Shown here one piece after another: positions 8,241-30,097 of a stretch of 64,000 nucleotides of DNA. The DNA is taken from contig CAYQPO010000001.1 in NCBI GenBank assembly GCA_964420015.1, positions 87,048 to 151,047 of the forward strand, read 5' to 3'. How positions within the stretch are numbered: position 1 is the first letter of the stretch; the number at the start of each line of letters is the position of its first letter. This DNA comes from an uncultured Candidatus Saccharibacteria bacterium (GTDB lineage Bacteria > Patescibacteriota > Minisyncoccia > Phycocordibacterales > SBAW01). Below the pieces are notes generated by a model. That model was not told where the DNA came from. It was given only the letters and a program-made list of their open reading frames with translations, and did no database searches. The position numbers were made by a program, and so were the translations under genes.

Positions 8241-8312
8241 TCCTCGGTAGCTCAATGGTAGAGCAGCTCCCTGTTAAGGAGTTGGTTGTAGGTTCGAGTC
8301 CTACCCGAGGAG
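8241..8312 (+). tRNA. tRNA-Asn (anticodon GTT)
   Basis: 72-nt cloverleaf. Acceptor TCCTCGG/CCGAGGA. D-stem GCTC/GAGC. Anticodon loop CTGTTAA. T-loop TTCGAGT. No encoded CCA. Confidence 0.85.
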
Positions 8313-11861: not shown

Positions 11862-14800
11862 ATGACTACTACCCCATCAATTAAAAAAGAAAGTGGAGCC
11901 AGTGGTGTAAATGCTCCTGCAAATGGCCTTCTATTCTTCAAGGAGGTAGCGAAATACTTCATGGACTTTTTGGAGACAGACTTCCATAAGCGGAAGTTGC
12001 CTCGACGAACTATTAGATACCGTGATGGTGATAATCTCCTTGTCGGATTAAATCTTCAGAAGTATGAGACATTCAATAAATTAATATTAAAACTTATTGG
12101 AAAGAACTTTGAAAAAAACATCTTAGGTAAGCTCGAGAAAGGTGTTTACCAGACATTACTACCAAAAAATCTGCTTGACCTTATCAAACTCCAAATCGGA
12201 AAAATTGAAGGGTCGTTAATAAACCAAATTACAGAAGATATTGCTGAGGAAATAGAGAAGTCAGGTACATTGCATGCAGAAGAATACGATATTGCTCTTT
12301 CAAACTCTATTGAGGCAGCTGCAAATATTATTCGTGATGAATTGGTTGATCCGTTCATAAAAAGTATAGAGAAACCATTGCAGAATTTACACCTTGGCGA
12401 AGAGGACGACATTTTCCGAATCGAGGAAGAAATGACCTCTGTTCTAGTAAAACAACTGGAAAGTAAAATTTCAGAGATATTGAATCTCTTTATCGCCGGA
12501 GAAAACATAAATCTCCAAAAAGAATTGAAGAGCATACTAGTACTATCGGATGTGAAAGGCACGTTGGAAACCTTTTTCGAAGACTTGCATGTCGCTGACC
12601 TCTTTGCGGAAGTATTCGAGATGCAACGTAATATGAGCATTCTTGATAAGCAGGATTTTTATCTTTACTTCGGCGACATTTCTTTCAATAACATAAAATA
12701 CCCCATCTTTTACATACCAGTCAGCGTAACAAGACAGGGTGAAGCGTTGAATCTAGAGTTTGATACACAGATCTACATAAACAAAAGAGCATTGGAATAT
12801 ATCGTTCAGGAATATAACACTCTAAAAGGAACCGGGGGCAGTCTCAAGAATGTCACGGAACGAATTATTTATCTTGCCCAGCACACGGACGATTTACAGG
12901 ATATTCTTTCAGAAATACTCATTGAAATAGGAAACCTTTTCGAGATAAATAACCATGTAGACTTTTCCGTATCTGAGACTGTAACGGCAAAAGGTGCATC
13001 AGTGCGCATATCGAACTCTTGTTATCTGTGTCTCTTCGACAAATCTGACGAAGCGTTAGTAAACGACTACGAGGATATTTTACGTGAATTGAATGCTGAA
13101 GGTGGACTGCTTGCTGAGGCGTTTAATAAATTACTTGGGGATTTTTTACACAATAACCCAGAGCCAGTGAATCCGGAGGTTGAGAAGGAGTGGGATGACA
13201 CAGAGACTTCTGATCGCCTTGTCGCACAAAGCCCTATTCCCTTGAATGCCGAGCAGTTGCAGATTCTTTCGGCAATAAAGAAAGATAGATGTAAGTACAT
13301 GATCGTTGAAGGCCCACCCGGTACTGGTAAAAGCCATACCATTACAGCGATTATTTTCGACGCAATATTGAGAGACAAATCCATCCTTGTTCTCTCAGAT
13401 AAAAAAGAAGCCCTTGATGTCGTAGAGAAAAACATTACTCAAACAATAAATAAGGTCCGGTTTGATAAGAACTTTCAGAACCCTATTCTGCGTCTTGGTA
13501 AGACTGGCAATACTTACGCACAAATACTTGCAAAAGGTACTGTCGAGAGTATCAAAACTCACTATCGTGCTGTTAGAAAGGACTTCGAGACCATCGAAGA
13601 GAATATAGACAAATCCAGCAATACGCTCAAGGAGGATTTGGAGGCGGAAATTATTGCCTATGGAAGTATAAACGTTCAGGAAATTCAGGAGCTTGTACAG
13701 CTTGAAGATACACTCAAAAATGCAAAATTGGTCTTTGACATAGATGAACTACTTGAGGATGAAAATGCTGCACTTGAGCTCGCGGAGATGAGATCTTCTC
13801 TTGAAGAGTTTTCTGGACAATTCAGAGGAATACATACTGAGGGAATATTAAAATTGCTCGGTATAAAGCTTAAGAACATAAACACAATAGATGAATACGA
13901 GGGACTTCTGCGCTTCCTGACGGCAACTCAAGAAAGCGTAAAGAAGGTACAAGACACCTTTGGAACAAAAGTGGAGGCCGTACAGAAATTCACTTCATTC
14001 ACAAAGGAAAACCTTGGAGAGCTAAACAAATTTGTGAAAGAATACACAGATCTCAAAGCTTTCCTCGTCGGGTTCCTTTTTAAAAAAGAGAGGGTTGTCG
14101 AAGTCGATTTACGATTCATGCGTACCTTGAACAGTTCATATGCTACGCCGCATGAACATCTGGTCGCATTGAAAGATGCTGTTGCCATCTTTGAATTCAT
14201 TGCGGGTCAGGGGCGAGAAATAAACAAGCAGTTCGAATCCGATTTTGACTTTATTGCACTTGTTCATTACATCCTTCGAGAGGGCGAGACTGCCGAAAGC
14301 CTCAATGAAGTTCTTGCATCTGCTGAAGAGGTTAAATATTTCAAGGAGTTTTCTGAAAAGTACCCTAAAACAGTAGTGCGCTCAGAGCTTGATCTGCAAA
14401 ATCTTGTTTCTCTGAACGACTGTGCCATTCTCTCTCTTGGAGAGTCCGAGTTCGACAAACAGCTTCGCTATTTAAACCTTCGTCAAAAAATAACGAGAGA
14501 GTTCTCGAACATACCAGATTTAAACTACGCTTTAAAAAGGAAGAATATTGAAGATTTGGTGATCACTCAAGTTGCATATCTCATGGATGGAAGGCTCATT
14601 AATTTTTATGAGCATAGTAAAAGTGACGCAGAGACGCTAAGAAACGTAATTCGAAGTAAACAAAGATTCCCCCGAGACGAATTTCAAAAACTTAAAGAAG
14701 CCTTTCCCTGTATCTTGGCAGGCATTAGAGACTACGCTGAATATATTCCTCTTGAACAGGAAATGTTTGATTTGGTCATAATTGACGAAGCTTCACAGGT

Positions 14801-16445
14801 TAGTGTAGCGCAAGCATTTCCGGCCCTGTTGCGCGCAAAGAAGGTTCTTATACTAGGAGATAAAAAGCAGTTTAGCAATATAAAAGCGGCACAGGCTCGA
14901 TCAGACACGAACAGAGAGTACCTTAATACTCTTGAGCAATCCTTCAAACGAAATGTATCAAGTGAAACAACACAGCTTGTAAGACTCAGTAAATTTAATA
15001 TCAAAACTTCAATTCTCGAATTTTTTGAATTTATTAGCAATTACAACACTCAACTCGTTAAACACTTTCGTGGCTACAAAGAAATAATCTCCTATTCCAA
15101 TAAGTTCTTCTATCAAGGAAAACTGCAGGTAATGAAAATCCGAGGAAAGGCTATAGACGACGTAATAAAGTTTACGTACGTTGATGCGAAGGCAGAGGAC
15201 GAGGTGTATCCGAATGCAAATATAAAGGAAGTCGAAGCAATTATTGCTCAATTGCAATCCCTAAAAGAAGCTGGGACAGAAACTAGCGTAGGCATTATTA
15301 CTCCCCACACAAATCAGCAAAAGTTATTGGTGGAACAAATAAATAAAATGCCTGATAGAGACTACTATATCGATAATCTCCAGCTGAAAATAATGACATT
15401 CGATACGTGTCAGGGTGAAGAGAGGGACATTATTTTTTATTCGATGGTTGGCTCAAAGCATAGCGATAAACTTTGGGGTGTGTTTATAAAAGATCTCAAG
15501 GATGTCGACATTGAAGAGGACGGCCAGATCAAAGCACAGCGACTAAACGTAGGATTCAGTCGCGCCAAGGAATGCATGCATTTTATCTTGAGTAAACCTC
15601 TGGATGACTTTAATGGGTCTATTGGTGATGCCCTAAGACATTATTTCTATATATCAGAAGAAGCAAAGAAGGAACGGGGTGTCGCGGAAACAGATGCTCG
15701 ATCACAGAAAGAGCCTGAAGTACTTAATTGGTTTTACCAAACGAGCTTTTGGAAAAAGAACACTGATTCTATCGAGTTCATACCCCAATTTGAGATTGGT
15801 AAATACTTAAAACAGCTTAATCCATCGTACATTCATCCATACTACAAAGTTGACTTTCTTCTCATTTATAAAGACGCGAAGCAAAAAGAACATAAGATCA
15901 TTATTGAATATGACGGTTTTCAAGAGCATTTTGTAAACACTGACGCTGTAAATGCTTACAACTATCAGAATTATTATTCTGACGACGATGTATACCGACA
16001 AAAGGTACTTGAGAGTTATGGTTACAAATTCTTACGAATAAATCGATTCAACGTCGGGAGCAACCCTATAAAGACTTTGGATGAACGGATTGCGCGGTTG
16101 GTAAAAGACGAACCTAACGAAAACCCTTTGCTGAATAACATTCATATGACCGTTGAAGGCCTCCAGAATGGAGCTATGAAAGAATGCCCGAAATGTAAGG
16201 AGATAAGATCCTATAGTGATTTTAAAGACTCCTCGTTACTCACTGGCGTGGGCCGATTCTGCAAGACCTGCAAGAATAATCGAATTACAGTTCAAGCGGC
16301 CCTAGTGGCTGCACGTCCTGCCCCGGTTCTCACAGATACAAAATGTCCACGCTGTAGCTCCCCGATGATTTTGAGAAGTGGTCGAAGAGGAAAATTTTAT
16401 GGTTGTTCCCGCTTCCCATATTGTCGCGGTACAAGAAACCTATAA
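11862..16445 (+). CDS. giant DUF4011 - SF1B (Upf1/DNA2-like) helicase - DUF559/Vsr-like endonuclease - C-terminal Zn-ribbon protein (Hhe-like)
   Basis: DUF4011-like N-terminal segment (…DISFNNIKYPIFYIPVSV…). Walker A GPPGTGKSHT. Motif II LVIIDEASQV. Motif V/VI TFDTCQGEERD. Vsr/DUF559-like C-terminal block (…IIIEYDGFQEH…GYKFLRINRFN). Ribbons CPKC…CKTC and topoisomerase-type CPRC…GCSRFPYC. Confidence 0.75.
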   Translation: MTTTPSIKKESGASGVNAPANGLLFFKEVAKYFMDFLETDFHKRKLPRRTIRYRDGDNLLVGLNLQKYETFNKLILKLIGKNFEKNILGKLEKGVYQTLLPKNLLDLIKLQIGKIEGSLINQITEDIAEEIEKSGTLHAEEYDIALSNSIEAAANIIRDELVDPFIKSIEKPLQNLHLGEEDDIFRIEEEMTSVLVKQLESKISEILNLFIAGENINLQKELKSILVLSDVKGTLETFFEDLHVADLFAEVFEMQRNMSILDKQDFYLYFGDISFNNIKYPIFYIPVSVTRQGEALNLEFDTQIYINKRALEYIVQEYNTLKGTGGSLKNVTERIIYLAQHTDDLQDILSEILIEIGNLFEINNHVDFSVSETVTAKGASVRISNSCYLCLFDKSDEALVNDYEDILRELNAEGGLLAEAFNKLLGDFLHNNPEPVNPEVEKEWDDTETSDRLVAQSPIPLNAEQLQILSAIKKDRCKYMIVEGPPGTGKSHTITAIIFDAILRDKSILVLSDKKEALDVVEKNITQTINKVRFDKNFQNPILRLGKTGNTYAQILAKGTVESIKTHYRAVRKDFETIEENIDKSSNTLKEDLEAEIIAYGSINVQEIQELVQLEDTLKNAKLVFDIDELLEDENAALELAEMRSSLEEFSGQFRGIHTEGILKLLGIKLKNINTIDEYEGLLRFLTATQESVKKVQDTFGTKVEAVQKFTSFTKENLGELNKFVKEYTDLKAFLVGFLFKKERVVEVDLRFMRTLNSSYATPHEHLVALKDAVAIFEFIAGQGREINKQFESDFDFIALVHYILREGETAESLNEVLASAEEVKYFKEFSEKYPKTVVRSELDLQNLVSLNDCAILSLGESEFDKQLRYLNLRQKITREFSNIPDLNYALKRKNIEDLVITQVAYLMDGRLINFYEHSKSDAETLRNVIRSKQRFPRDEFQKLKEAFPCILAGIRDYAEYIPLEQEMFDLVIIDEASQVSVAQAFPALLRAKKVLILGDKKQFSNIKAAQARSDTNREYLNTLEQSFKRNVSSETTQLVRLSKFNIKTSILEFFEFISNYNTQLVKHFRGYKEIISYSNKFFYQGKLQVMKIRGKAIDDVIKFTYVDAKAEDEVYPNANIKEVEAIIAQLQSLKEAGTETSVGIITPHTNQQKLLVEQINKMPDRDYYIDNLQLKIMTFDTCQGEERDIIFYSMVGSKHSDKLWGVFIKDLKDVDIEEDGQIKAQRLNVGFSRAKECMHFILSKPLDDFNGSIGDALRHYFYISEEAKKERGVAETDARSQKEPEVLNWFYQTSFWKKNTDSIEFIPQFEIGKYLKQLNPSYIHPYYKVDFLLIYKDAKQKEHKIIIEYDGFQEHFVNTDAVNAYNYQNYYSDDDVYRQKVLESYGYKFLRINRFNVGSNPIKTLDERIARLVKDEPNENPLLNNIHMTVEGLQNGAMKECPKCKEIRSYSDFKDSSLLTGVGRFCKTCKNNRITVQAALVAARPAPVLTDTKCPRCSSPMILRSGRRGKFYGCSRFPYCRGTRNL

Positions 16446-18001
16446 TGAAATATCTAATATCAAAAACTACATTTCTTTCTTTTCTTGAATGCTACAGAGA
16501 CGTATGGCTCCGTATTCACCGTCCCGAACAGGTGGGAAAGCTTCAGATCTCCGATTTTGAGCTTCACATTCTTGAGCAAGGTAATGAGGTAGAGGCTGAA
16601 GCTCGAAAACTGTTTCCTGACGGCGTCTATATTACTTCAACAGAAGACGACGCAGTAAATGACACTGTTTGTTTGATGCGAGAAAAGACAGCAACCATTT
16701 TTCAAGCCACATTTCTTGTAGATGGCTTCATTGCTAAGAACGATATGCTTGTTTATGACAAGGTGGGTGATAAGTGGGATCTCTACGAAGTGAAGGGAAC
16801 AAACTCTTTAAAAGAAGAAGGTGCCGGCTCTAGAGACCATATTGATGACCTTGCCTTTCAATTGAGTGTATTGAGGCGGTCAAATGCAAATGTGGGTCGT
16901 TGTTTCATTATTCATCTCAACAAAGAATATGTACGTGCGGGTGATATTGATCTCAAAGCTCTGTTTGTTGTTGATGATGTTACGGATAAAATAGAAGCAC
17001 GTTTGCCTGAGATAGAAGAGAAAATGAAAGTGGCTAAAGAATATTTAACTTCAGAGAAGGAACCGCCGCGAGGTTGTGAGTGTGTTTATAAGGCACGAAA
17101 GAAACACTGTACTAGCTTCCAACTCTCAAACCCAGAGATACCCGAATATTCTGTACACGACTTATCTCGTGTAAGTCAGAAAAAACTCGACCTATTTATC
17201 GAGCGAGGCATTTTTGATCTGAACGACATACCAGATGATTTTGAGCTCACTGATAATCAAAAAAATCAGGTGATGGCGCATAAGCGACAAAAATCAATAA
17301 TTAACATTGAAAATATAAAGAAGGAACTTAATGAACTCACTTTTCCATTCTATTTTTTTGACTATGAAGCCTTTGGCCCAGCGATACCTGCTTTTAACGG
17401 ATACGGTCCTTACAAGCACATACCGTTTCAATTTTCTATTCATATTCTGCGAAGCCCCACGACCCCTTTAGAGCACGTGGAGTTTTTACACGATAGTCTC
17501 TCTGACCCATCGGAAAAAGTAGTTGAGATATTAAAAAAACACATTCCGCCCGGAGGAACGATAATTGCGTGGTACAAACATTTTGAAAAAATGGTCTGCA
17601 AGGAAATAGGAATCCGGTTACCTCAACATGCTGCGTATCTTGAAGAGTTCAACAGCAGAATTTATGATCTGATGGACATATTCCATGACCAACACTACGT
17701 ACATCCTAGTTTTAAAGGAAAGAGCTCAATCAAGAAAGTACTCCCGACCTTAGCTGCTGAATTGCGTTACGACATGCTTGCTATCCAAGAAGGAGGACAG
17801 GCCGCAGATGCTTGGTGGAAGATGGTATCGCCGAACACATCAGTGGATGAAAAGAAACAAATTGCCCATGATCTGAAGGTCTATTGTGGTCTTGATACAT
17901 ATGCCATGTACGCAATTTGGCATCACTTGCAAGAAACAATAACGGATGGAGTGGTACCGACACGTCTTCTTTATCCACCGATTCATTCAGTCAAGAAATA
18001 A
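16445..18001 (+). CDS. DUF2779-like protein with N-terminal Cas4/RecB-type PD-(D/E)XK nuclease motifs
   Basis: N-terminus MKYLISKTTFLSFLECYRDVWL resembles the DUF2779 start. D…D…EVK nuclease triad (…KNDMLVYD…LYEVKG). The ATG overlaps the stop of the giant ORF (TAATG). Confidence 0.6.
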   Translation: MKYLISKTTFLSFLECYRDVWLRIHRPEQVGKLQISDFELHILEQGNEVEAEARKLFPDGVYITSTEDDAVNDTVCLMREKTATIFQATFLVDGFIAKNDMLVYDKVGDKWDLYEVKGTNSLKEEGAGSRDHIDDLAFQLSVLRRSNANVGRCFIIHLNKEYVRAGDIDLKALFVVDDVTDKIEARLPEIEEKMKVAKEYLTSEKEPPRGCECVYKARKKHCTSFQLSNPEIPEYSVHDLSRVSQKKLDLFIERGIFDLNDIPDDFELTDNQKNQVMAHKRQKSIINIENIKKELNELTFPFYFFDYEAFGPAIPAFNGYGPYKHIPFQFSIHILRSPTTPLEHVEFLHDSLSDPSEKVVEILKKHIPPGGTIIAWYKHFEKMVCKEIGIRLPQHAAYLEEFNSRIYDLMDIFHDQHYVHPSFKGKSSIKKVLPTLAAELRYDMLAIQEGGQAADAWWKMVSPNTSVDEKKQIAHDLKVYCGLDTYAMYAIWHHLQETITDGVVPTRLLYPPIHSVKK

Positions 18002-26636: not shown

Positions 26637-27125
26637 TTATTTCAGCTTAACCGAGTTGAGCGCGGTGTTAGCCGCCGAAATATCAGCGATGATTGCGACC
26701 AAGCTATTAGAGATGTTGCTCGCATTGCTCGCGGTGATCGCAACTCCTTTAAGCGCCGCAAGGCGGTTTGATGCATCTTTCATCGCTGCAATTGCTGCAT
26801 CCATGTTGTTGCCCTTGGCTGCCGCGACACTAACTGCGAGCGAGAGTTTCGGGACGATCACATCGAGCGCTGCTACCGCGCCTGCGACCTCAGCTGCGGC
26901 CGCAGTGAGTTTGGCCGAGTCGCTGCCGGCAGCTTTAATGTCAGCTGCGGCCTTGTTGGTAATATTGACCACGCCGACGCTCGAGGGTGCTACACCGGCG
27001 TTGTTGGCGTTAGCTGCGGCAGCACCTTGAGAGCCTGCCGACACGCCCGGGATAATCCCCGCCCACCACAAAAGCCCTACAATAATTGCTGCGACGATCA
27101 CACCCCAGATAACCTTTTGAGACAT
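26637..27125 (-). CDS. hypothetical Ala-rich membrane-anchored protein
   Basis: N-terminal TM. Low-complexity A/S/N-rich helical repeats. Confidence 0.4.
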   Translation of the reverse strand: MSQKVIWGVIVAAIIVGLLWWAGIIPGVSAGSQGAAAANANNAGVAPSSVGVVNITNKAAADIKAAGSDSAKLTAAAAEVAGAVAALDVIVPKLSLAVSVAAAKGNNMDAAIAAMKDASNRLAALKGVAITASNASNISNSLVAIIADISAANTALNSVKLK

Positions 27126-27296: not shown

Positions 27297-27470
27297 ATGG
27301 CAAACAACACTTCTCGTCGCGGCTTCGCCTCGATGGACAAGGAGAAACAGCGACAAATAGCCAGCAAGGGCGGCAAGGCTGCACACGAGCGCGGCACCGC
27401 GCACGAGTTTAACTCGCGCGAGGCCGCTGAGGCCGGCCGCCTGGGCGGGCTCGCCCGCGGTCGCCGTTAG
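27297..27470 (+). CDS. KGG-repeat general stress peptide (not in the ORF track; 57 aa)
   Basis: MANNTSRRGFASMDKEKQRQIASKGGKAAHERGTAHEFNSREAAEAGRLGGLARGRR. KGG and GG-x-R repeats typical of the YciG/Con-6 family. A terminator hairpin follows. Confidence 0.5.
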   Translation: MANNTSRRGFASMDKEKQRQIASKGGKAAHERGTAHEFNSREAAEAGRLGGLARGRR

Positions 27471-27552: not shown

Positions 27553-28896
27553 TCATCGTTTTGCTCCGGCCGCCGGGAAGAAAGCAAGTTGTACCGGCTT
27601 CCCTAATCGCTTGTAGTAACTCTCGGGCAGCTCCAGTTGGGCGAGCTTAGCGAGTTGCACCACCGCGACGAGAAAGTTCCACCCGTAGAAACGCATGGCG
27701 AACGCGATCACATCGCCGTGCGCTTTGCACTTGTGACAATGGAAGGTCTGCAAGATGGGGCTTGCGGTTAGGCTCTGCCCTCGTGCTCGACAAAACGGAC
27801 AGGGCGCCCGCACGCCAGTGGCTTTGGGTGCCCACTGATGCTGCGGCATACACGAACGTACGTAGGGCACCACAGGCACCTTTTGTCGAAGCTCATCGAG
27901 CCATTGCTTGTCGAACCGATATCGCATCTTGCCTTGCGGCTTGGGCGGGCATTTCTGCGCCAAGATCGGCTCGCAGAGCGCGAGCTTTTCTTTGATCGCA
28001 TTGACTCGCTCGGTTCGTATCGCTCCGTCGAAGCGATCCTCCAGCTCCTTAAACCATGCGATCCGCCCCCGCAGCTGCGGGAGCGCTACGTCCAGCAAAC
28101 TATTGCTCAACAACACTTCGAGCTGCCGCTCGAGCGTGTCATAAAAGCCTTTCGTATGCGTAACGCGCTTGCGCCCTAGTTGCACGCCGGTGACCACCAC
28201 TGGGTGCGTGCGTCGATCTCCAGGTGACGTCTTTTTTTCGTTTACCCGGAAACCCGCACGCCCAACGATGTAGCGGATCTGCCCACGCACATAGCGTGGA
28301 ATCTCCGCCGCCGAAGAGAAGTTAAGGTCATCGGCGTAGCGCGTGTAGGTTATCGGCGCGTGCTTGTGCTCTTGGTGATGCGCAAGCAACTGCCCGATCG
28401 GCTCGTCGAGCCAAGAGCGAGCAACGAGCTCAAAGAGCAAAGGAGAACACGGCGCCCCTTGAGCAAGCCCGAGGTTTGGCACCATGCAATAGCGCTCTAC
28501 AAAGTCGATAACCTCCCTTGCCTCCCCAAACCACGGGTCGAGCAACAGAAGTTGTGCCGCCAGCTTGGAGGCCGACACGCTTGGGTAGGCATCTTTTAAG
28601 TCGAGTTGGAAGAAGTAACGATTGAGTTGATGGTCGAGCGCTCCTCGCACAGGAGACTGGCTGATGCCGGGCACCAATTTCTCGATCACTTCGACCAGGT
28701 TTTCGTGCACCGCTCGAAGCTCATCGCTGGGCTTCGAGATCGTTCGCCTTTTGCCCTTTATATTTCGGCGCTTGGTGACAAACGTCAGAGCATCGCGAGG
28801 ATGCCCCGAAAGTAGTTCGGCTATCCTCATTGCATGCTCCTCAGAGAGTGACCGTCCAAAAAGAGTGTAATCGGGCATACCAAAGCAGTCAAACAA
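27553..28896 (-). CDS. retron-type reverse transcriptase fused to a C-terminal DnaG-like CHC2 zinc finger
   Basis: RT motifs FFQLDLKDAY (A), GLAQGAPCSPLLF (B), YTRYADDL (C), HPVVVTGVQL (retron-like VTG). C-terminal CPFCRARGQ…FHCHKCKAHGDVIAF matches the primase CHC2 pattern. TTG start at 28896; the alternative is ATG at 28878. Confidence 0.75.
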   Translation of the reverse strand: MFDCFGMPDYTLFGRSLSEEHAMRIAELLSGHPRDALTFVTKRRNIKGKRRTISKPSDELRAVHENLVEVIEKLVPGISQSPVRGALDHQLNRYFFQLDLKDAYPSVSASKLAAQLLLLDPWFGEAREVIDFVERYCMVPNLGLAQGAPCSPLLFELVARSWLDEPIGQLLAHHQEHKHAPITYTRYADDLNFSSAAEIPRYVRGQIRYIVGRAGFRVNEKKTSPGDRRTHPVVVTGVQLGRKRVTHTKGFYDTLERQLEVLLSNSLLDVALPQLRGRIAWFKELEDRFDGAIRTERVNAIKEKLALCEPILAQKCPPKPQGKMRYRFDKQWLDELRQKVPVVPYVRSCMPQHQWAPKATGVRAPCPFCRARGQSLTASPILQTFHCHKCKAHGDVIAFAMRFYGWNFLVAVVQLAKLAQLELPESYYKRLGKPVQLAFFPAAGAKR

Positions 28897-28929
28897 AAAA
28901 GCTCCGATCTTGATCGGAGCTTTTACCTC

Positions 28930-29270
28930 GAGGCCTGGGGGCCATCAAGACAGTGATGTGGTTGAGGCAACGGCGAAGCCGGTTGCTGATCCTCCCCCTG
29001 GCGGTCGGATCGACATGTGAGACACCACCGATGCCGTCGTGCACCAGGGAGCGACCTCAAGGAGCGACCTGCGGTCGCACTCGAAGCATGCTCAGGGCTC
29101 AAGGCCACCGGGCAGGTGGCTATTGCCGGCACGCGTCCTATGCGCGGGGAGTCCTACGTAGCGTCCTACGAGGTTTACCCCAGAAGACCCTTCAAGCGCA
29201 ACGCCGGAAGGGGCAGTGTAGTAGAAAAGAACATCACGATGGTGCTCATTAAAGAGTTCCCCCAGGCCAA
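28930..29270 (-). ncRNA. candidate retron msr-msd-like structured ncRNA upstream of the RT
   Basis: ~340-bp GC-rich ORF-poor region bracketed by a 10-bp inverted repeat (CCCCCAGGCC 29259..29268 and GGCCTGGGGG 28932..28941). Internal hairpins. A TATAGT -10-like element sits just upstream on the minus strand. Confidence 0.3.
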
Positions 29271-29311
29271 CCGTGTGCACTATACCTCAAATTTCTGCCG
29301 CTCAGCTTATT

Positions 29312-29341
29312 TTGACATAAAGCTCGGCTGTGTGTTATACT
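29312..29341 (+). promoter_or_regulatory. sigma70-type promoter TTGACA-N18-TATACT for the OMP gene
   Basis: Near-consensus hexamers ~50 bp upstream of ATG 29390. GAGGGAAAGGA RBS. Confidence 0.5.
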
Positions 29342-29389
29342 GTAGAGCGGATTGGGCAATCAAGCCCGCCTGAGGGAAAGGACCTTTCT

Positions 29390-30097
29390 ATGAATCGTTC
29401 TCTGTCGGGGGCCTTGGTGGCCCTTTCGCTTTGCTTTGCGGCTCCGGCCACCGCGGCCGACGCTCCGAGCCTCCCGCGTCGCCAGTACGTGCCGGCTAAC
29501 GATTACGTCCGCCAAAACTGGGCGGGCGACTATATCGGCTTGACCGGCAGCTACAGCTGGGGTCGTGCCTCGTCGTGGGACTCCACGACCGGCGGCTTCA
29601 ACTACGGCACACACGGCGGCCTCGGTGGCGTCAGCTACCTGCACTACTGGCAGTTTGGCAACGTGGTCTTCGGACCCGAGGTCACCTGGTCGTGGGGCTC
29701 GGTCAGCGGCAAGAAGATCTTCGACTGCGGCCCGGGCTGCGTGCCTGTTAGCCACGCGAAGATCACTTCGCTCGGCACCGTCGGCGCCAACGTCGGCTAC
29801 GCGCTCGGCGACTTCTTGCCCTACGTCGGCGGCGGGTATGCCCGCGCGTCGACAACGATCCGCTCCGACCTCAACTTGGGCGGCACGACGCTCCTGTCGA
29901 TGACCAGCAGGCAACCGGCCGACGGCTGGTATGCCAAAGCGGGCCTCGAGTACAAGCTGACCGACAACATCACCGTCGGCCTCGCCTACCAGCGGACCGA
30001 GCTGACGCTCTCCGACTTCGGCGACTCGACCGGCTTTCGATCGAGCCAGAAGGCGACCGATAACGCGATCAGAGCCGATCTTCGGCTGCGCTTTTGA
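29390..30097 (+). CDS. outer-membrane beta-barrel protein (OmpA-like/opacity-family barrel)
   Basis: Signal peptide …AAPATAADA. Alternating amphipathic beta strands rich in Gly and aromatics. Ends with the C-terminal …LRLRF OMP signature. Confidence 0.7.
   Translation: MNRSLSGALVALSLCFAAPATAADAPSLPRRQYVPANDYVRQNWAGDYIGLTGSYSWGRASSWDSTTGGFNYGTHGGLGGVSYLHYWQFGNVVFGPEVTWSWGSVSGKKIFDCGPGCVPVSHAKITSLGTVGANVGYALGDFLPYVGGGYARASTTIRSDLNLGGTTLLSMTSRQPADGWYAKAGLEYKLTDNITVGLAYQRTELTLSDFGDSTGFRSSQKATDNAIRADLRLRF

Follow-up and report, generated by a model that had tools for sequence, protein, structure and literature searches.

A Probable Structured RNA Partner of a Retron-Type Reverse Transcriptase Fused to a DnaG-Type Zinc-Binding Domain in an Uncultured Saccharibacteria Lineage

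In a 64-kb stretch of a contig from an uncultured Candidatus Saccharibacteria bacterium (CAYQPO010000001.1, positions 87,048 to 151,047; this whole stretch is referred to here as the window), a region with no evident protein-coding gene lies upstream of a gene for a reverse transcriptase (RT), and a preliminary description of the sequence had proposed that this region is a candidate retron msr-msd RNA. The analysis presented here indicated that positions 28897-29272 probably constitute a gene for a structured noncoding RNA (ncRNA) of ~375 nt, which would be the dedicated partner of a retron-type RT that carries a DnaG-type zinc-binding domain. That the ncRNA is the cognate structured RNA of this RT appears very likely; retron-like reverse transcription of the RNA is the interpretation that we favor, with considerably less assurance. 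Comparison with homologous loci strongly indicated that the RNA has its own -10 box and terminator, that its ends are clamped by two helices (P1 and P2) around ~270 nt of hairpins, and that the RT gene is located behind a promoter of its own. The RNA and the RT most likely form a retron-type but noncanonical system that includes a fusion protein of which no description was found in a search of the literature.

Layout of the putative RNA gene

Read along the minus strand from the divergently oriented gene for an outer membrane protein (OMP)-like product, the locus consists of TATAGT, the 5' arm of an inverted repeat, ~317 nt of GC-rich sequence, the 3' arm, a terminator, a promoter-like site, GAGGAG, and the ATG of the RT gene. 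The features are as follows.

29279..29284, minus strand: -10-like box TATAGT, conserved as (G/A)TATAG(T/A)
28897..29272, minus strand: whole putative ncRNA gene, ~375 nt, recognized from the promoter box, the terminator, the fold z score, and the plan common to homologous loci
29259..29268, minus strand: P1 5' arm (a1-like), GGCCUGGGGG, pairs with 28932..28941
29245..29256, minus strand: P1a, small predicted hairpin CUC-UUUAAU-GAG on the 5' strand between P1 and P2
29231..29242, minus strand: P2 5' strand, CCAUCGUGAUGU, pairs with 28942-28959
29228..29235, minus strand: motif GAUGUUCU at the inner end of P2, invariant, family consensus GAYG-UUCU
29135..29169, minus strand: three copies of (G/A)UAGGAC (29163-29169, 29151-29157, and 29135-29141), direct repeats within 35 nt
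29119..29123, minus strand: AUAGC motif (ATAGC invariant in the window and in loci L162, L165, and L166; ATAGA in L161)
29102..29118, minus strand: P5 hairpin GCCACC-UGCCC-GGUGGC, directly 3' of AUAG, from the fold and from homologue sequences
28988..29056, minus strand: longest inner hairpin in the fold, ~26 bp, in the more variable 3' part
28967..28986, minus strand: short predicted hairpin GCAACCGGC-UUC-GCCGUUGC, just before the P2 3' strand
28942..28959, minus strand: P2 3' strand ACAUCAC-UGUCUU-GAUGG, abuts the P1 3' arm and pairs with 29231-29242
28932..28941, minus strand: P1 3' arm (a2-like), CCCCCAGGCC, pairs with 29259..29268
28897..28924, minus strand: intrinsic terminator, 12- to 13-bp stem, loop of 2-4 nt, and U-tract, terminator-like in a scan
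28864..28892, minus strand: RT promoter-like site TTGACT-N17-TACACT, between the hairpin and the RT gene
27553..28830, minus strand: retron-type RT of 425 aa with Pfam domains RVT_1 and Zn_ribbon_DnaG

The starting point of the preliminary description was a 10-bp inverted repeat resembling the a1/a2 arms of retrons. This repeat was found where it had been reported (GGCCTGGGGG at 28932-28941 and CCCCCAGGCC at 29259-29268 in plus-strand letters), with 100% complementarity and 317 nt between the arms. The full arm-gap-arm pattern occurred once in the window and in none of 100 dinucleotide shuffles. A single 10-bp inverted repeat in ~550 nt is by itself only mildly improbable (a rough estimate gave ~0.14 expected by chance), and the significance of P1 therefore derives from its conservation and covariation in homologous loci rather than from the repeat alone. 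Moreover, the repeat proved to be the outer portion of a composite closing stem, in which the long-range helix P2 stacks on P1. The predicted free energy of P2 in the window was -12.8 kcal/mol, which none of 300 shuffles equaled. At the position of P1a, larger hairpins were predicted in L162, L165, and L166, and none was predicted in L161.

The palindromes reported at 29064-29078 and 29102-29118 were likewise present, as were the direct repeats (two copies of GTCCTACG, and the pair CAGGGAGCGACCT/CAAGGAGCGACCT). The third copy of (G/A)UAGGAC, at 29135-29141, aligned with the family motif GGUAG(G/A), which is located 12-14 nt before AUAGC in L162, L165, L166, and L170. Farther toward the 3' end, the hairpin at 28988-29056 is the best candidate for a putative msd-like template stem.

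A hairpin at 28901-28920 had been read as a possible terminator immediately before the RT start codon. The hairpin is present, extends to 28897-28924, and is followed by a T-run on the minus strand; moreover, hairpin and U-run are conserved across loci, in agreement with the terminator reading. Its position relative to the start codon had to be revised. The earlier start at 28896 was the TTG of a mechanically called open reading frame (ORF), whereas the actual start is the ATG at 28830, which is preceded by GAGGAG, because the aligned Met (M1) is invariant in the homologues, where it is followed by Arg, Lys, Trp, or Ser. With this start, the hairpin is a terminator ~67 nt upstream of the RT start codon, ahead of a separate RT promoter, and the a2-like arm is ~100 nt rather than ~35 nt from the RT start. 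The terminator stem (AAAAGCUCCGAUC-AA-GAUCGGAGCUUUU) is flanked 5' by an A-tract and 3' by a U-tract. It is therefore potentially bidirectional and could also halt plus-strand transcription that runs antisense through the RT gene.

We placed the start of the RNA ~7 nt downstream of TATAGT, the -10-like box, and its end at the U-tract of the terminator. The box, noted earlier at 29284-29279 of the minus strand, is conserved: (G/A)TATAG(T/A) was found upstream of the RNA in the window, L161, L162, L165, and L166, 8-10 or 45-47 nt before P1. The accompanying -35 element is weak, and a scan for consensus promoters did not call an ncRNA promoter. On the plus strand, the near-consensus promoter that had been assigned to the OMP-like gene (TTGACA-N18-TATACT, 29312-29341) was present, with 11 of 12 consensus matches, and the gene itself (Pfam OMP_b-brl) begins with the ATG at 29390. 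One public assembly also calls a 77-aa ORF at 29140-29373 of the plus strand, which spans the promoter of the RNA and overlaps its 5' part in antisense. It has no Pfam match, and no frame is conserved in the homologues, so that it is probably a spurious call.

Homologous loci and evidence for a conserved RNA

Loci that encode an RT with the zinc ribbon were recovered at 44% (L161), 42% (L162), 46% (L165), 43% (L166), 33% (L167), and 27% (L170) RT identity to the window; L162, L163, and L164 are one locus recovered from three samples. Relatives with the RT only were found in L169, L171, and L001 (contig JBKJLI010000003.1 of a Saccharimonadia metagenome-assembled genome [MAG]). All of the loci with RT and zinc ribbon have 520-920 bp upstream of the RT gene that contain neither a conserved frame nor a Pfam-supported gene; the only gene calls inside these regions were a 62-aa ORF with a weak KGG match (L161) and the 77-aa antisense ORF of the window. 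The preliminary description had held that its reading would fail if homologous RT loci showed no conserved structure in this region. Each recovered locus was found to have a structured element, a closing repeat, and compensatory changes.

The window, L161, L162, L165, and L166 (the close loci) share one plan, in which (G/A)TATAG(T/A) is followed by P1, an optional hairpin, P2, the interior, P2', P1', the terminator, a TTGAC promoter, a Shine-Dalgarno sequence, and the RT gene. In these five loci the P1 arms read GGCCUGGRGR (5') and YCYCCAGGCC (3'), with GGCCUGG invariant, and the 5' strand of P2 ends in an invariant GAYG followed by UUCU. The interior is 250-330 nt long and contains GGUAG(G/A) and (GCC)AUAGC, the latter directly followed by hairpin P5. 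The linker from the P1 3' arm to the terminator is 9-35 nt long. The RT promoter of the close loci has the form TTGAC-N17-TACACT, with TAGCGT instead of TACACT in L162 and L166.

Several of these elements extend to more distant relatives. A hairpin with a U-run occupies the corresponding position in L161, L162, L165, L166, L167, L170, and L169, and a TTGAC hexamer directly follows the terminator in L161, L162, L165, L166, L167, and L170. L167 and L170 keep the closing repeat (8 and 10 bp, respectively) around interiors of 276 and 249 nt; in both, a U/C-rich UUCU element comes after the 5' arm, and the 3' arm is located ~20 nt before the terminator, which is itself followed by TTGAC. The motif GUAGR-N12-14-AUAGC also occurs upstream of the RT gene in L170. 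As a regular expression, it was expected to match by chance ~20 times in the 2.8 Mb of loci and was found 13 times elsewhere, so that the motif is meaningful only by virtue of its position. P1 is also kept in the RT-only loci L169 and L001, the latter of which also has P2. In L001 (5576-5918), a 12-bp P1 and a 10-bp P2 enclose 343 nt, the RT gene begins 30 nt downstream of the 3' arm, and no terminator is present; the RT is ~306 aa long, 34% identical to that of the window, and lacks the zinc ribbon. Since L001 shares the large-RNA design in the absence of the zinc ribbon, the design either predates the zinc-ribbon fusion or is independent of it.

Support for the helices came from changes that retain pairing. 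In the close loci, positions 8 and 10 of P1 change from G-C to A-U with both partners changing together, and position 3 changes from C-G to U-A in L001; because the sister loci L162 and L166 differ at position 8, the change there happened at least twice. P2 is formed by GUGAUG/CAUCAC in three loci and by UGACGA/UCGUCA or UGGCGA/UCGUCA in two, always at the same location. L162 and L166 differ in P2 by two compensatory changes and one G-U change, and the P2 of each close locus beat nearly all shuffles. The P5 stem is CCACC/GGUGG in the window, CGGGG/CCCCG in L162 and L166, and CCGGG/CCCGG in L165; 4 of its 5 positions differ on both sides with pairing retained.

RNA folding, which had been proposed as a check, was carried out against dinucleotide shuffles. 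All 7 RNAs folded better than their shuffles (z = -2.8 to -6.7), and for the window element z was -4.26, with none of 100 shuffles as good. In 6 of the 7 loci the fold of the RT strand was better than that of the antisense strand and contained more G-U pairs, the difference amounting to 19-51 kcal/mol in L162, L165, and L166. This strand asymmetry, together with the G-U pairs, favors an RNA on the RT strand over repeats that function at the DNA level. The consensus energy of L162 and L166 was -162 kcal/mol, compared to -108 kcal/mol for column shuffles and -107 kcal/mol for the antisense strand. Identity between the same two loci amounted to 93-100% in the central RNA, compared to 74% in the RT gene and 43% in the DNA that lies upstream of the promoter; within the RNA, the 3' third varied most (47-73%). 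These sequence comparisons indicate that the RNA is under purifying selection. No stop-free frame was common to the homologues on either strand, with stops in all frames of L162, L165, and L001, and the arm-to-arm lengths (337, 298, 385, 358, and 386 nt) shared no common phase. The window has an antisense stretch of 318 nt free of stops, which was considered as a small-protein or Neo-like gene and rejected, as it is not conserved in the homologues. When five whole RNAs were aligned with MAFFT and folded with RNAalifold, the interior was poorly aligned and only P1 was credible, and a MAFFT alignment of the motif region misaligned the hairpin of the window. Structural support is claimed for P1, P2, P5, and the terminator, not for the whole predicted fold.

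The RNA remains with the RT gene and not with the OMP-like gene. In L162 the upstream gene is a same-strand C39 peptidase gene, and in L161 the RNA is separated from the OMP gene by a KGG gene. The window is syntenic with L161 (PeptA4, 69%; HisK, 63%; RT, 44%; OMP, 31% identity), and the GC content of the RT gene (57.5%) is host-like, whereas that of a nearby helicase island is 40%. This fits a locus that is an old resident of the lineage rather than a recent transfer. Viral contigs yielded no relatives of the RT. The matches that a loose DNA pattern gave in these contigs were due to chance, a 3' arm being present in 2 of 80 loci, neither of them convincing. Scans of genome and metagenome collections for the RT family with degenerate peptide patterns returned generic retron RTs, and among the matches listed only L001 was informative.

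The reverse transcriptase, known systems, and alternative explanations

The RT domain comprises approximately residues 20-270 and contains YADD, and the DnaG-type zinc-binding domain comprises approximately residues 304-403 (27622-27921). In PADLOC, the best 25 of 42 matches were all retron RT models, with types II-A, III-A, and VI at ~1e-25; the best score was 88 bits, and no model scored the protein as a true member of its type. The NCBIfam model retron_St85_RT matched at 7e-30, below the family cutoff. Sequence matches in the PDB consisted of 13 chains of retron or related RTs (Ec86 the best, at 5e-11) and the zinc-binding domain of Bacillus DnaG (1d0q). A Foldseek search with an AlphaFold model (predicted local distance difference test score, 80.5) placed retron RTs in the top 13 ranks, followed by group II, G2L4, DRT2, and DRT9 RTs, with those of DRT2 and DRT9 at ranks 20-35. 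Hallmarks of retron RTs are NAxxH in region X, where conservation is highest at H, and VTG in region Y, where it is highest at G (PMC7736814). In an alignment of nine family members, H67, T214, and G215 were invariant and the consensus read NALxH and VxxTG, the window RT having GALDH and VVTG at these sites. By sequence, motifs, and predicted fold, the RT is assigned to the retron type.

The fusion is rare. In a set of 5.8 billion proteins it accounted for 11 clusters when these were drawn at 90% identity, and in a set of 1.84 billion representatives for ~48 drawn at 50% identity, beyond which the scores fell to those of ordinary retron RTs of ~300 aa. The paper that defines the 13-type retron classification mentions no zinc finger (PMC7736814), and a search of the literature for retron RTs with such a zinc domain returned no description of an RT-DnaG zinc fusion. 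The zinc ligands are located at RT residues 344-368 (~27727-27801) and have the pattern CxxC...CxxC in the window; the homologue P0010 keeps the CHC2 pattern, and P0007 and P0008 have CPLSNC, so that the second zinc ligand varies within the RT family. In primases, the DnaG zinc-binding domain reads single-stranded template DNA.

The canonical retrons, exemplified by Ec86/Eco1 (PMC7736814), resemble the window system in the RT (retron clade, NAxxH and VTG motifs, and predicted fold), in a structured ncRNA immediately upstream on the same strand as the RT gene, in the closure of the RNA ends by a1/a2-like inverted repeats (P1 in all close loci, with compensatory changes, and extended by P2), and in a conserved 5' part that is followed by a more variable 3' part. 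They differ in that a DnaG zinc-binding domain is attached to the C terminus of the window RT. In architecture, the closest analogue is type I-C, the RT-Toprim fusion of Ec67/Eco2 (PMC12916289), which is likewise a C-terminal fusion to a module also found in DnaG-type primases, and Eco2 was among the top fold matches. The window fusion has taken up the opposite half of this primase module, a zinc-binding domain and not the catalytic Toprim nuclease, and therefore supplies no obvious enzymatic effector; moreover, the RT-Toprim_I-C models of PADLOC scored below II-A, III-A, and VI. The motifs associated with type VII and DUF3800 genes and the RT-1 to RT-19 motifs (PMC5737381) are also structured RNAs beside RT or DUF3800 genes, but none had an Rfam match to the window or the homologous loci, even at a permissive threshold. 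The DUF3800-associated motifs do, however, offer a precedent for a terminator that follows a retron-like RNA (PMC5737381). A group II intron was rejected, since structure is present only upstream of the RT, no Rfam intron matched, and retron RTs outranked group II RTs in the fold search.

A number of observations weigh against a retron-like partner RNA as set out above. From arm to arm, the RNAs of the window family measure 300-390 nt. This is about double what is usual; a typical retron ncRNA has roughly 150-250 nt. In the canonical layout the msr forms 1-3 short stem-loops and the msd a long hairpin, single or double (PMC7736814), whereas at least 8 helices, including the second closing helix P2, were predicted in the window, and at least 7 hairpins in the interior of every locus. 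Canonical retrons are made as a single transcript, whereas a terminator and a promoter are predicted between RNA and RT in 7 loci, although read-through is possible. The residues after P1 vary (AAC, GGU, AGU, and ACC); the inner end of P1 has no conserved G, and no branching-G context, which in msDNA is AGC, is recognizable there. The conserved Gs are those of the P2 end (GAYG-UUCU) and of AUAGC, neither of which can be assigned as the branch point. A branching role for the G of AUAGC, flanked by a1/a2 pairing of its own, was considered and rejected, as the stem that encloses it is local in the window but long-range in L162 and L165, with no consistent pairing. No recognized effector is present at the window locus, and the fused zinc domain is not a known effector. 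When the element and 7 homologous loci were searched against all 4227 families of Rfam 15, which include the msr family RF00170, the RT-1 to RT-19 motifs, and the DUF3800 motifs, only terminator-like chance matches were obtained at gathering and permissive thresholds. Comparison was limited to ~4 independent close lineages, with correspondingly low statistical power. In the L162/L166 pair, 7 compensatory pairs were counted, compared to a mean of 6.5 (maximum of 11) in column shuffles and 10 on the antisense strand; since the raw count was no better than that of shuffles, it was not used as evidence, and only the energies were taken as informative. The original msr-msd proposal was borne out in part, in its retron-type RT and conserved closing stem, and departed from in size, helix layout, the second closing helix, and the predicted separate transcription unit.

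We considered the possibility that the RNA is a partner of the RT without being an msr-msd, either as a scaffold or regulator of the zinc-binding RT or as a template of the DRT2 or DRT9 kind. DRT2 synthesizes a concatemer by a rolling-circle mechanism and DRT9 synthesizes a homopolymer, and both use large ncRNAs. These systems resemble the window system in consisting mainly of an RT and a large structured upstream ncRNA that is both scaffold and template; in size and multi-helix form the window RNA is nearer to the DRT2 and DRT9 ncRNAs than to an msr-msd. The closing stem that joins both ends of the interior, the separate transcription unit, the lack of an assignable branching G, and the presence of DRT2 and DRT9 RTs among the fold matches point in the same direction. 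Nevertheless, the window RT is of the retron type and not the UG/Abi type, being clearly closer to retron RTs by sequence and fold and having the NAxxH and VTG motifs. Furthermore, the open frame that DRT2 needs is not conserved, and with no conserved stop-free frame and arm-to-arm lengths that are out of phase, a Neo-like concatemer ORF is argued against. Overall, we consider a partner of this other kind to be unlikely. The strong terminator between a conserved structured RNA and a same-strand gene, which had earlier been raised as a possible attenuator, together with the weak -35 element of the upstream promoter, could also suggest a cis-regulatory leader (riboswitch or attenuator) of the RT mRNA that gates passage through the hairpin at 28897-28924. 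However, a promoter of the TTGAC-N17-TACACT type is found directly after the terminator wherever the terminator exists, so that RT expression need not depend on read-through. In addition, the folds contained no anti-terminator pairing, the terminator folding alone in all of them; L001 keeps the RNA without a terminator; and the size and closed form would be unusual for a leader that matches no Rfam riboswitch. Such a leader appears improbable.

The remaining alternatives separate the RNA from the RT or dispense with it. An independent regulatory RNA of the host, placed beside the RT gene by synteny alone, would be consistent with its own promoter and terminator and with the common descent of the syntenic window and L161 loci. 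It would not account for an element that stays directly upstream of the RT gene on the same strand despite different neighbors (L162 and L167) and that keeps this association at 27-34% RT identity (L170 and L001), and we regard it as very improbable. Least credible of all is the absence of any RNA function, with the region consisting of DNA-level repeats, divergent promoter architecture, or a small protein gene (the 77-aa ORF). A divergent promoter region is indeed nearby, the ORF is called in one assembly, and the 10-bp repeat is itself of limited improbability; but the G-U pairs and strand asymmetry favor RNA, no frame is conserved, the OMP promoter lies outside the element, the element also occurs without an OMP neighbor, and conservation between L162 and L166 is higher in the RNA than in the RT gene.

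For the preferred reading, in which the RNA is the reverse-transcribed partner of the RT, the following mechanism may be proposed. The RNA would be made in excess and would accumulate as a discrete free molecule of ~375 nt. The RT would bind its conserved 5' and central part (GAYG-UUCU, GGUAG, and AUAGC with P5) and copy part of the variable 3' region beside the closing stem, including the hairpin at 28988-29056, into single-stranded cDNA, which the zinc-binding domain might hold as product, unless this domain instead senses foreign single-stranded DNA. Candidate priming nucleotides would be the end of P1, the G of GAYG-UUCU, and the G of AUAGC. The position of the RT-DNA in retron ncRNAs is currently determined empirically only (PMC10849725). 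More tentatively, with the chances somewhat short of even, the locus may represent a new retron type in which an RT-DnaG zinc fusion is combined with a giant, separately transcribed, multi-helix ncRNA, inherited vertically and without a recognized effector, and in which either the cDNA is unusually long or complex or the zinc domain couples synthesis to the recognition of single-stranded DNA.

Neighboring genes and significance

Two genes on the RT 3' side recur beside homologous RTs.

26637..27125, minus strand: membrane-anchored, Ala-rich protein of 162 aa, downstream of the RT, with an N-terminal membrane helix
25275..26582, plus strand: protein of 435 aa, two winged-helix domains followed by a C-terminal domain of the DUF7227/GP88-like kind

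The 162-aa protein is 50% identical to the product of a 160-aa gene downstream of the RT gene in L161 (6478-6960), and a gene of equal size (162 aa) adjoins the RT gene on the P0003 contig, making three loci in all. The window protein had no family matches and is a possible accessory protein. The 435-aa protein is 52% identical to the product of the gene directly after the RT gene in L162 (6434-7864). Its family comprises ~18 clusters and combines LexA-like winged helices with a Cys-rich DUF7227/GP88 domain that otherwise occurs in phages (phrog_2554); no solved relative of the C-terminal fold was found. The gene adjoins the RT gene in two loci only (the window and L162), a link that makes an accessory role possible but weakly connected. 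An obligate partnership was rejected, since the homologue in L172 (8001-9353) has no RT nearby and is located beside a serine recombinase gene and a type IV secretion system pilin gene.

A small gene for a KGG-repeat stress protein (27333-27470, plus strand) converges on the 3' end of the RT gene, and the weak KGG match of L161 is on the other side of the RNA. This difference in position indicates local rearrangement around a fixed RNA-RT unit. Elsewhere in the window, a low-GC island (11862-18001, plus strand; 40% GC versus 53% for the whole window) contains a gene for a 1527-aa superfamily 1 helicase that combines a REase_MTES_1575 domain with a Top1-type zinc ribbon, and behind it a gene for a DUF2779 protein. 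The island looks like a horizontally acquired defense or mobile module. The Rfam matches above the gathering threshold in the window were a LOOT RNA (RF03000, 11053-11168, plus strand; 80 bits), which adjoins the low-GC helicase gene just upstream, and a tRNA (8241-8312, plus strand).

Retrons are both antiphage systems and genome-editing tools, and the rules that govern their RNAs are known for few types. If the interpretation given here is true, a retron-clade RT with a primase zinc domain and an RNA of double size would add a type outside the 13-type scheme, and the fusion raises the question of what role a domain that reads single-stranded DNA has on a retron RT. With its own promoter and terminator, the RNA would be naturally supplied in trans with respect to the enzyme, an arrangement that would be convenient for engineering. 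Even if the RNA is not reverse transcribed, it would still be an unclassified large structured RNA tied to an RT. Finally, with the nearest annotated relative in a Saccharimonadia MAG, the finding would extend retron-like elements to poorly known uncultured lineages.

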